A stretch of DNA of 64,000 bases, from the NCBI RefSeq assembly GCF_016026235.1, contig NZ_CP065614.1, one strand, 5' to 3'. The DNA comes from Escherichia coli (GTDB lineage: Bacteria > Pseudomonadota > Gammaproteobacteria > Enterobacterales > Enterobacteriaceae). A program made the position numbers. Numbering within the stretch: position 1 is the stretch's first letter; each line of letters opens with the position of its first letter. Shown piece by piece: positions 42,001-45,000 of the stretch.

Positions 42001-45000
42001 ACTGTACCGGTTACCGGAGCCGTGACACTGAACACCAGTTTCAGCCCGTTCATACTGAACCGGAACTGTGAGTGCGGTATCGTCACCTCACGATATTCAT
42101 CCGTGTATTTCCAGTCTCCGGTGATCCTGGCAGTCCGTGTGCAGAATTCCTCCACCATCGTGTCCCGTTCACAGGTATAGTTTGTGAATTCACTGCGGTT
42201 TATCTGCTGTGCACTACACTGCTGTCCGGTATTTCCCACAATGCTGTCAGCCCAGTTCACCACATCCCTGCCGGTCTGAATGAACGGTGCATCCGGTGAC
42301 AGAATGTCTTTCGGCTTGTTCATGAATGACTCTGTGATGGTTTTTCCGGTTTCACCGGTCGCCCATTCCGTGGTGCCGTCATTTTTCAGGCCGCCATCCC
42401 CGCCGGCAGTCACGCCACCGTAATATTTTGTCTCGTCCGGATTCGCGTTATAGCCGGGGATACTCTCCTGTGGCTTAAAGCCCTGAATACTGCTGCTTCC
42501 CTGCCCTTTGATCTGGTGAGCAAAATCAGAACCGGCCCGGTAATCACTGTTGCTGTCAGCCTGTGCCATGCCGGCAACCAGAGCCAGTATCAGAGGTAAA
42601 ATACGTTTCATTTCCCGGAATCTCCTTTCCCTGCCAGTAAATCATGAGCCACCTGCCGGCAGTCACCCGTGGCGGCCACTTTCTCCAGCGCCTGGCCGAC
42701 CCGCAGGTTTCCCCGGATGATGTCGTATCCCTGACTGCAGAACACCACCAGTGCCGGTACACTGCGAATGCCGTACTGTGAAAACAGCGTCGGGTCGATC
42801 TGAACACCATCAGTCGCGCCGTCTTTCACCAGGGACAACACAGCTTCAGCGGTGGTCTTCAGGTCATTGTTCACCATGCCCCGCAGTGTAGCCGGAATAC
42901 CGTAGTGCCGGGTTTCGCCCAGCATCCGTTTCAGCCCCTCTTCGGGAATGGAAAACGACACAAAATACAGGGCACCCTGCCGGGGTTTCCCGTCCTGCGA
43001 AGCCTGCTGTTTACGAACCAGCTCATCCAGAAAATGGTTATCTGAACGCTGAAGGGGGTTTTCCAGCACCTGTTTCTCCGCCCAGGCTTTCAGCTGATGG
43101 TCAGGTTTTTCACGCAGTTGTCTGCTTAAATTTTCCTGCTGCTTCAGGAACTGGCGGTTTTCAGGTGTGTTCACATTTTCTGAAGCATGAACAGCAAGAT
43201 GCATCCCTGCTGTCAGAGCAAAAAGTGCAAATATTTTCCGGTTCATGATATTTCTCACTTTCTGCTATTTACAGGCATGAACTCATCAGAAAAAAGATAA
43301 TTGAGAAAAACAGCCACAAACGCACATGTAAATGTCACCTTCAGATATAATCTGACAAGTGTCACTTGTTCTGATATATCTGCCATCTTCCATTCATGAA
43401 TAATTTCAGCGAGAAAACTGTCAGGTGCAAAATAAAATAATATAACGGGCACCATTACAAGACCAAAAGGAAATAATTTTAATGTTCTGCTTATCAGCAT
43501 GAGCAGCACAGTACTTATTTTCCTGAGGTGCTGAATATATTTACTGTCCATTGTTGCCATTTTCATTTCCTCTTATTCATTAAAATGATTTACAGGAATA
43601 CACAGTTACGTTTACGCCACATCAGGTAGCCGAAGTTTTTCTTTGTGTTGGGCGGATTTTTCCCGGTTTCCCAGCGGGTCACGCTGCGCCCGAACGGGTG
43701 GCACTGTCCGCTGTCCGGATACATATTCACCATCTGGTAACGCCAGCGTTCTTTGGGCAGGATTGGGGACGGATATTCATTACAGACGGCGTTATTTTTC
43801 CCGATGGTTTCCATAATCATGCCCTGACGGTGCAGCTTGAACGCCATGCGTTCACTGACCAGCAGGGAGGACTGCAACGGACTGGACTCATTACTCACCT
43901 GGCCATTGAACGGGTACATACTGCCCTGCGAACCGGCACACCAGAACAGAACATCGAGAGGCATATTAAAGGCGCTGGCAATGGCATCTGCTGCACAGGC
44001 CCCCTGTGCTATCGGATTGGCAAAGATGACAGCTTCCGGATTGAGAATGGTGGTCAGGCTGCTGTCCGTCCAGGTGGGGTCAATTTCAGAAAGATAAGCG
44101 ATATCCAGGTCACCACCTTCCAGACAGCCCAGCGATGTGATGATGTTAAGCCAGTACGTCAGCGGGTATTTGTACCAGTGAACGTGACAGAACGCCCCGT
44201 TCACCTGCTTCTCATCCTTTTTCGCCGTTCCCTGTGCCGTTTTACCAAAAGCCGGCAGGCTGAAGCCCAGGTTCACCATGCATCCCGGTGACCGGGTGAC
44301 GTCCGTCAGCGCCATCGGCTCCCAGTAACCAATGGCCAGTCCGATACGCCTGAACAGCGGCGGCGGTGCCGGACAAATCTGAACGGGCATCGACGGGTTC
44401 GCCGTGTCGGGGACCTTACCCTGACTGACTTTGATACTGCCCAGCGAGAGCGGGAAAATACAGCTCCAGCAGATATCCGTGATCGGGTTTACAAAACGCC
44501 CCTCACAGGCAGAATCCGCAGACGCCGCAGGGACATGACCGGCGAGAAGGAATAACATCAGCAGCCACAGGCTTCGCTTCATTTTCTGCCCTCCTCTGCC
44601 GGAATAAATTCCACCTTCAGGAAGCGATCGCCGGGAACGGCGCTCACCCGTGCCGGGACCTGATCAATGCCGAGGCGCTGGCAGAGCACACCGTTCTGGT
44701 CAAAGTAAACACGGCTGTCCAGAGACTTCTGCATCTCCGGGATACTGCCCTGCACGAGGATAATTTTGCTCTCCAGTGTGGGCGGCGTCTGGCGTTTCAT
44801 CCAGGCCACCTGCGCCGGATCATCGCCATTGATGAAATACAGCGTCTGGTTAAAAGGCACATACTGCAGCGGATTCATCACTTCACCCTGACGGGCAAAC
44901 ACCCGCCCTTCGTTATCCCGGATATCCGCAGCCAGTCTGACGGACGGGTCAAACAACCGGCTGCCGTATTTCTCCGTGCGTCCGATACCGGGCACGGCAG

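Follow-up and report, generated by a model that had tools for sequence, protein, structure and literature searches.

A small two-helix membrane protein gene at the traU–trbC junction of R100-type transfer operons

Introduction

The window analyzed here, a 64,000-nt stretch of Escherichia coli DNA (NZ_CP065614.1), contains a tra operon in which a short, AT-rich open reading frame (ORF) lies between traU and trbC. A sequence-only reading of the window had singled out this ORF as a candidate lineage-specific mating-pair accessory or exclusion factor. The locus thus raises the question of what occupies the traU–trbC slot: whether the ORF is a gene at all, whether it is peculiar to this plasmid, and whether its product serves the mating apparatus or is only carried along with it. 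Small genes of this sort are not foreign to such operons, as TrbD, TrbE, TrbF, TrbJ and TrbA are short products of the F tra operon that are dispensable for F transfer.

Results

A 101-codon gene lies between traU and trbC

The features of the interval, in window coordinates, are as follows.

43590–44582, minus strand: traU, the upstream neighbor, 330 aa, 98% identical to F TraU
43569–43573, minus strand: Shine-Dalgarno (SD) site AGAGG serving the slot ORF, −6.0 kcal/mol duplex with the 16S 3′ end
43561–43566, minus strand: codons ATG AAA, included only when the ORF is read as 103 aa; an unlikely start, with an SD spacer of 0–2 nt
43255–43560, minus strand: coding sequence of a 101-aa protein with two transmembrane (TM) segments (MATMDSKY...VNSRK), the R100-type allele of the traU–trbC slot; stop TGA at 43257–43255
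43254–43260, minus strand: weak trbC SD, AAGTGAG, overlapping the end of the slot ORF, dG −4.9 kcal/mol, spacer 6
42608–43246, minus strand: trbC, the downstream neighbor, 212 aa from the ATG at 43246, the TrbC length being as in F
43184–43246, minus strand: R100-type trbC start and signal-peptide codons (MNRKIFALFALTAGMHLAVHA)
43187–43591: cassette variable with respect to F, comprising the spacer, the ORF and the first ~20 trbC codons; 405 bp, versus 70 bp in F

Read from its first ATG, the ORF spans positions 43255–43566 of the minus strand and has 103 codons. The traU stop ends at 43590, leaving a gap of 23 nt to this ATG (43566) and of 29 nt to a second ATG (43560). The AGAGG site abuts the first ATG and is located ~6–8 nt from the second, R100 has an identical AGAGG site ahead of its slot ORF, and the RefSeq start in R100, pUTI89 and NZ_CP065612.1 is that of the 101-aa form. 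The second ATG is likely the start codon, yielding a protein of 101 aa.

The GC content of the ORF is 0.34–0.35, compared with 0.54–0.59 in traU, trbC and traN, in accordance with the AT-rich composition noted in the sequence-only reading. Arithmetic from base composition gives a chance of ~5 × 10−4 for an ORF of such length in DNA of 35% GC. No opposite-strand ORF reaches 40 aa, positions 42900–43900 hold no promoter-like site, the two terminator-like matches both fall outside the traU–ORF–trbC intervals, and the region of the ORF has no match in Rfam. A 12-nt direct repeat flanks the ORF (43267–43278 and 43588–43599); it was dropped as evidence because its length is within chance expectation. 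The slot ORF is almost certainly a genuine protein-coding gene.

On the downstream side, 8 nt separate the stop codon of the slot ORF from the trbC ATG at 43246, a gap that agrees with the RefSeq annotation. There is an in-frame GTG at 43258, upstream of the trbC ATG, which lacks an SD (dG −0.4). The stop/start overlaps with traU and trbC that the sequence-only reading described are replaced by gaps of 29 nt and 8 nt; the trbC overlap arises artificially when the longest ORF is chosen, as it needs the SD-less GTG.

The gene is a standard occupant of R100-type plasmids and is absent from F

The window gene is 95–96% identical over 101 aa to WP_000224416.1 of R100 (NC_002134, 64037–64342). The pUTI89 protein (WP_000224418.1) is likewise 96% identical. 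In R100 and pUTI89, the gene has the same traU–trbC position, the same strand and the same 29-nt and 8-nt spacers as in the window. The window protein matches WP_000224419.1 (NZ_CP065612.1) exactly, differs from the R100 and pUTI89 proteins by A17T, R21M and N/K58M, and falls, at 90% full-length identity or more, into the cluster of WP_000224416, WP_000224418 and WP_000224419. In F, by contrast, no gene intervenes, and just 8 nt separate the traU stop from the trbC start.

We used a 651-bp query region, which matched 4,365 PLSDB plasmids through the traU and trbC flanks. The whole R100-type cassette is present in 1,154 PLSDB plasmids, including R100 and pUTI89, and its gene is always labeled ‘hypothetical protein’; 1,435 PLSDB records show the empty, F-like junction. 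In a tblastn search of PLSDB, 2,013 plasmids had a member of the family (1,156 at 90% identity or more, 850 below 60%). Among 1.8 billion representative proteins, a profile search recovered just 39 clusters, indicating that the slot family is narrow and plasmid-borne.

These data bear out that F has no gene at this position and that the gene is restricted to some lineages, the cassette being carried by ~1,154 plasmids and the junction being empty in ~1,435. The gene is no ‘extra’, however, but the standard occupant in the IncFII reference plasmid R100, in pUTI89 and in ~1,150 PLSDB plasmids. In R100 and pUTI89 it is a known component, although under placeholder labels only, which goes most of the way toward refuting the ‘extra gene’ idea on the terms that the sequence-only reading had set. 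As a sequence feature it is therefore nothing new, being annotated in R100, pUTI89 and more than 1,000 resistance and virulence plasmids, and it is already catalogued as an unnamed ‘hypothetical protein’ that is functionally uncharacterized. F is without it, so F-type transfer as such does not require the slot gene.

In R100, pUTI89, pCT-KPC, pEA4_63, a pSLT-like plasmid and metagenomic contigs, the slot gene directly precedes either trbC itself or a partner gene that in turn precedes trbC. The partner encodes 150–173 aa and occurs in about 709 PLSDB plasmids. All context-resolved instances of the family (one short contig being left out) lie within conjugation gene clusters. The traU–trbC junction is polymorphic, either empty or filled with one, two or three genes, and is ignored by standard tra-gene surveys.

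R100-derived annotations (pC15-1a, pEC958) probably list the slot ORF under the coordinate-based name ‘ygeA’. The pEC958 paper (PMC3203889) reports that, in a plasmid without trbI, traW and traU, a 22-kb block reaching from traN to traX lies ‘between ygeA and finO’. In R100 the slot ORF begins at 64.0 kb, with finO at 85.5 kb. We infer the equation from the match between the ~22-kb ygeA–finO distance in that paper and the R100 coordinates. The ‘ygeA’ of F (Couturier et al.) is a different gene, in the leading region (PMC9849209).

Slot alleles are evidently exchanged between conserved flanks

Homologues of the window ORF differ in sequence and in the genes that accompany them, as listed here with their identity to the window ORF.

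pCT-KPC type (WP_000412447.1): 44%; followed by a 173-aa gene
pSLT type (WP_010999945.1): 28–34%; overlaps trbC
pEA4_63 (WP_001558290.1): 49–52%; preceded by several other small genes
L006: 59–63%; ORF plus a 154-aa gene
L005: 59–62%; ORF plus a 150-aa gene
L007/L008: 50–55%; a 154-aa P-loop protein gene, then the ORF, then a 150-aa gene
L017: 46%; a duplicated TraU 3′ fragment just upstream
IncX (WP_000623494.1): about 30–38%; in the IncX1/X3 (MPF_T) transfer region

The flanks of L007 are about 98% identical to those of the window, whereas the ORF is 72.5% identical; likewise, the TraU accession of pCT-KPC is that of R100, while its slot ORF is 44% identical and is accompanied by the partner gene. 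The L017 homologue, for its part, has a copied TraU 3′ fragment beside it. Because the flanks are near-identical while the ORFs diverge, slot alleles have evidently replaced one another through recombination within the conserved traU and trbC sequences on either side. The blastn homology of the window to F ends at 43592 and restarts at 43186. Residues 1–21 of TrbC differ from those of F and residues 22–212 are near-identical; the variable block thus reaches trbC codon ~21 and includes the TrbC signal peptide. We considered whether the F trbC leader is a deletion remnant of the slot ORF and rejected this, as the local alignment is not above shuffles (17/300). The F trbC leader is homologous to the pSLT-type trbC leader (0/300 shuffles).

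Divergent slot alleles share with the window gene a common signature, the two TM segments and a transfer-region context; many of them are paired with the 150–173-aa partner or with other cargo, while the window copy is solitary. The IncX homologue is located between coupling-protein/Cag12/TrbM genes and a thermonuclease gene, not beside trbC, and the IncX1/X3 plasmid that carries it has neither an F-type TrbC nor an F-type TraU. On an IncX-like contig, the homologue lies immediately 3′ of a YadA-like adhesin gene. At the neighboring trbC–traN junction, relatives carry HNH endonuclease cargo.

The product is a predicted helical hairpin under purifying selection

Hydropathy reveals two hydrophobic segments, residues 27–45 and 71–90 in the 101-aa numbering. 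The AF2 model obtained with an 18-sequence alignment is a confident helical hairpin (pLDDT 83, compared with only 65 when 6 sequences were used), in which residues 2–44 form an N-terminal helix running into TM1, residues 47–59 form a short helix, and residues 62–90 form TM2. The net charge is +3 at the N-terminus, −3 in the loop and 0 at the C-terminus, and the C-terminal tail is short and uncharged. From these charges, the hairpin is predicted to have both ends inside (N-in/C-in) and a small helix in the periplasm. The ORF, its two hydrophobic segments and the modeled hairpin substantiate the claim that a real gene for a small two-helix membrane protein lies inside the tra operon.

The family signature (LKLFPF...FYFxP(D/E)...W...LVRLYLK) comprises invariant P31 and W57, the near-invariant motif FYFxP(D/E), and LxRLYLK. 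The window ORF carries this signature together with the two TM segments of the wider family, and the reading frame and both hydrophobic segments are retained in homologues of 28–63% identity. Nei-Gojobori dN/dS is 0.11–0.19 against three divergent syntenic homologues and 0.11–0.26 over deep allele comparisons, which involve homologues of 50–63% identity, dS being saturated; the exception is the closer L005–L007 pair (0.44). The slot gene is thus a membrane-protein gene under purifying selection.

Within the R100-type cluster, the window allele differs from R100 by five nonsynonymous and one synonymous change and from pUTI89 by four and none. Such near-exclusively nonsynonymous changes would fit relaxed constraint on a gene whose operon is dead, the counts being tiny. 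Databases also contain frameshifted and internally deleted variants of the slot gene.

Searches return no characterized relative

Pfam contains no family matching the slot ORF at E ≤ 1, and the sole NCBIfam match is SstT at E 0.11, so that profile searches in these collections, a check proposed in the sequence-only reading, place the ORF in no curated family. Named Tra and Trb families (e.g., TrbE PF11100, TraQ, TraS, TrbD) give no significant Pfam or NCBIfam match, and a scan of 18 family members found no Pfam family that was consistently matched. PADLOC-DB and PHROGs give zero matches for the slot ORF, a profile search of PDB sequences gives none at E ≤ 10, and fold searches return generic helical hairpins only. 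The literature search found nothing on a gene in the traU–trbC interval, on its WP accessions, or on ‘ygeA’ together with trbC. The UniProt name ‘conjugative transfer protein’ given to the slot family is positional only.

The slot protein shares some traits with known proteins of transfer operons. Like TrbE and the other small Trb proteins, it is short and encoded between essential genes of the operon; it has no sequence similarity to TrbE, and, whereas TrbE is conserved across F, R100 and the window, the slot gene is missing from some plasmids and exists in highly diverse alleles. Like TraS of F-like plasmids and Eex of P-, N-, W- and X-type plasmids, both of them small inner-membrane products of transfer operons, it has alleles that outdiverge their neighbors, but it has no sequence match to TraS or Eex, and its family spans two MPF types.

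Discussion

Our leading interpretation, in which our confidence falls a little short of even, is that the slot protein is a dispensable, allele-swapping inner-membrane accessory or passenger that is co-expressed with the mating apparatus and whose function we infer. The slot gene would be part of the long tra mRNA, as suggested by the common strand, the 29-nt and 8-nt gaps and the interval between the genes being clear of promoter- and terminator-like sites. The ORF would be translated from its own SD at the ATG at 43560, and, since its stop is 8 nt ahead of the trbC start, terminating ribosomes could feed onto trbC. The 101-aa product would form an inner-membrane helical hairpin with both ends cytoplasmic: the N-terminal amphipathic helix carries a net charge of +3, TM1 (27–45) and TM2 (71–90) would span the membrane, and an acidic amphipathic helix (47–59), containing the invariant Trp57, would face the periplasm. 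The protein would be made only alongside the transfer apparatus and may act as a modulator of the apparatus or of the donor envelope, not as a structural part, and its alleles would move as cassettes through recombination in the conserved traU and trbC flanks. The occurrence of a homologue in an IncX plasmid without F-type TrbC and TraU makes a specific F-type partner unlikely. Also speaking against this interpretation are the lack of similarity to any Tra, Trb or other curated family, the generic nature of the fold matches, the frameshifted and internally deleted variants, and the almost purely nonsynonymous differences of the window allele from R100 and pUTI89.

AT-rich composition, patchy presence and unrelated cargo in relatives suit a passenger as well as a transfer accessory, and the rival that makes most of them, possible though rather unlikely in our estimate, is that the slot is permissive and the gene is passenger (‘moron’) cargo, a solitary component of a two- or three-gene defense or competition module. 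Such a module could guard against pilus-specific or other phages, or attack rival plasmids, and would be expressed when the pilus is exposed. A conserved 150–173-aa protein follows the homologue in ~709 PLSDB plasmids, and in L007/L008 the homologue is preceded by the 154-aa P-loop protein, which weakly matches AAA_14, the PADLOC mad8 and GajA-type ATPases and the NCBIfam family ‘DS8_antiphage’ (E 1e-4, far below the cutoff). The ORF is foreign in composition, its alleles have diverged far beyond the flanks, the family occurs in two unrelated MPF types, and the trbC–traN junction next door also holds cargo. On the other hand, the matches of the P-loop protein all lie under curated cutoffs, the membrane protein and its 150–173-aa partner have no match in PADLOC or PHROGs, and every context-resolved instance is within a conjugation gene cluster. 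In addition, on plasmids of the R100 and pSLT types the membrane gene stands alone and is maintained by purifying selection, which means that it functions without partners. It is also highly improbable that the protein has no function of its own, the ORF being either a translated spacer that feeds ribosomes to trbC or a decaying remnant. The weak trbC SD (−4.9 kcal/mol) does lie inside the last codons of the slot ORF, truncated and frameshifted variants do exist, and the window allele differs from its close relatives almost wholly by nonsynonymous changes; yet dN/dS is 0.11–0.26 over alleles, the motifs and both TM segments are kept, and the AF2 model is confident. Furthermore, in ~709 plasmids the partner gene intervenes between the homologue and trbC, so that coupling to trbC cannot be the constraint. 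Together, dN/dS and the partner-separated homologues refute the translated-spacer reading in the main.

Two further explanations assign the protein a known kind of activity. As an entry- or surface-exclusion or immunity factor, a role also suggested by the sequence-only reading, it would reside in the inner membrane of the recipient and block related plasmids. It is predicted to be a small inner-membrane protein, and its strongly diverged alleles between conserved flanks resemble the pattern of traS, a specificity determinant with diverged alleles. We nevertheless regard this role as improbable, because R100 and NZ_CP065612.1 have a separate gene in the traS position (traG–traT) and traT downstream of traG, and because the 30%-identical homologue in IncX (MPF_T), which has an unrelated type IV secretion system, is hard to square with recognition of a cognate donor. 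Pfam and NCBIfam, TraS families included, give no match, and exclusion works normally in F and ~1,435 other plasmids, which have no slot gene. Alternatively, the protein could be a holin-like or toxic membrane protein that permeabilizes the inner membrane, for example as an export aid or an abortive-infection effector. Class II holins have ~100 aa, two TM segments and an N-in/C-in topology, and so, by prediction, does the slot protein, although this feature is generic. There is no consistent family match (a single weak one, E 0.15, in 1 of 18 members), no lysin adjoins the gene, whose neighbors are traU and trbC, and the C-terminal tail is short and uncharged. Moreover, more than 1,000 plasmids carry the gene in a constitutively derepressible operon, which argues against toxicity, and we give this explanation very little credence.

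The transfer operons of ~2,000 PLSDB plasmids encode a conserved membrane protein under purifying selection that is functionally blank. The boldest reading, which we consider unlikely, is that the traU–trbC junction is a cargo slot driven by recombination and anchored by a hitherto undescribed two-TM family, which IncX plasmids have as well, with a new conjugation-linked function exerted alone or with the 150–173-aa and P-loop partners. If true, the family might shield donors that bear pili against pilus-dependent phages or against envelope stress, or mediate competition between plasmids.

Context of the window

The tra operon in the window is degraded by IS insertions. An IS4-like transposase ORF (49898–51139) occupies the place expected for traL to traP, and IS66-family ORFs (37828–40122) lie between trbE and traF. 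The trbE gene itself is at 40459–40737, ~2.5 kb downstream of the slot gene. The closest plasmids are E. coli plasmids of about 277–294 kb, at least one of which carries virK, capU and lpxM (pINV-like).

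Gene content of the traU–trbC slot in relatives

In relatives carrying homologues of the slot ORF (the 101-aa two-TM protein gene between traU and trbC), the slot also holds a conserved 150–173-aa protein, found there in ~709 plasmids of PLSDB and giving no family match. The slot genes of these relatives may together constitute a two- or three-gene module. The additional genes in the slot and at trbC–traN, the next junction along, are as follows.

Additional genes and fragments at tra junctions of relatives
L007/L008, 3592–4826: extra slot genes
L006, 4314–4778: extra slot gene
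L009 (pCT-KPC), 2860–3381: extra slot gene
L017, 3599–3799: 66-aa fragment matching the TraU family, directly upstream of the slot homologue
L009 (pCT-KPC), 4043–4862: 123-aa protein and HNH endonuclease, trbC–traN junction
L017/L018, after trbC: 126-aa ORF, trbC–traN junction

The slot of L007/L008 contains an additional 154-aa P-loop protein with weak matches to AAA_14 and defence-ATPase-like models. The TraU-like fragment of L017 lies ~1.7 kb past an intact traU, and looks like the footprint of a cassette insertion via recombination at the traU 3′ end. The trbC–traN junction, too, serves as a cargo slot.

Two-TM homologues of the IncX type sit in MPF_T transfer regions (L012, 2423–3225; L016, 1606–3860), one upstream of a thermonuclease gene and the other directly 3′ of the gene for a 612-aa YadA-like trimeric autotransporter adhesin.

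Boundaries of the variable cassette

A 12-nt direct repeat (ATTTACAGGCAT / ATTTACAGGAAT) flanks the slot ORF of the window, with one copy at the 3′ end of the ORF and the other at the traU 3′ end (43267–43278 and 43588–43599), a repeat length within chance expectation for the region. At the trbC side, codons 1–21 of trbC (43184–43246), which encode the signal peptide, fall inside the variable cassette; compared with F, the first 21 residues of TrbC are wholly different, while residues 22–212 are nearly identical. The F leader is homologous instead to that of the pSLT type.

State of the tra operon

Two insertions interrupt the tra operon of the window.

Features at the two interruptions
51399–51764: traA, with the IS4-like transposase ORF directly next
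49898–51139: IS4-like transposase ORF, 413 aa, ISEc60-like per annotation of the closest plasmid
40459–40737: trbE
37828–38514 and 38521–40122, plus strand: IS66-family ORFs between trbE and probable traF
36967–37716: 249-aa ORF, probably traF

Within 49898–51764, traA is followed by the IS4-like transposase ORF, after which lie a trbD-like ORF, traV and traC. Because traL, traE, traK, traB and traP are apparently absent, the operon is probably non-functional, with a polar effect on genes downstream. The IS66-family insertion, within 36967–40737, makes a second break. Six residues distinguish TraU of the window (43590–44582) from its F counterpart; two of the changes, Y132C and W228Q, are non-conservative and may be signs of decay now that the operon is interrupted.

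The coordinate-based name 'ygeA' has been applied to two unrelated genes (PMC3203889, PMC9849209), one of which is an F leading-region gene (PMC9849209), while the other is apparently the traU–trbC slot ORF in R100-derived annotations (PMC3203889), a pitfall when annotation transfer relies on text.
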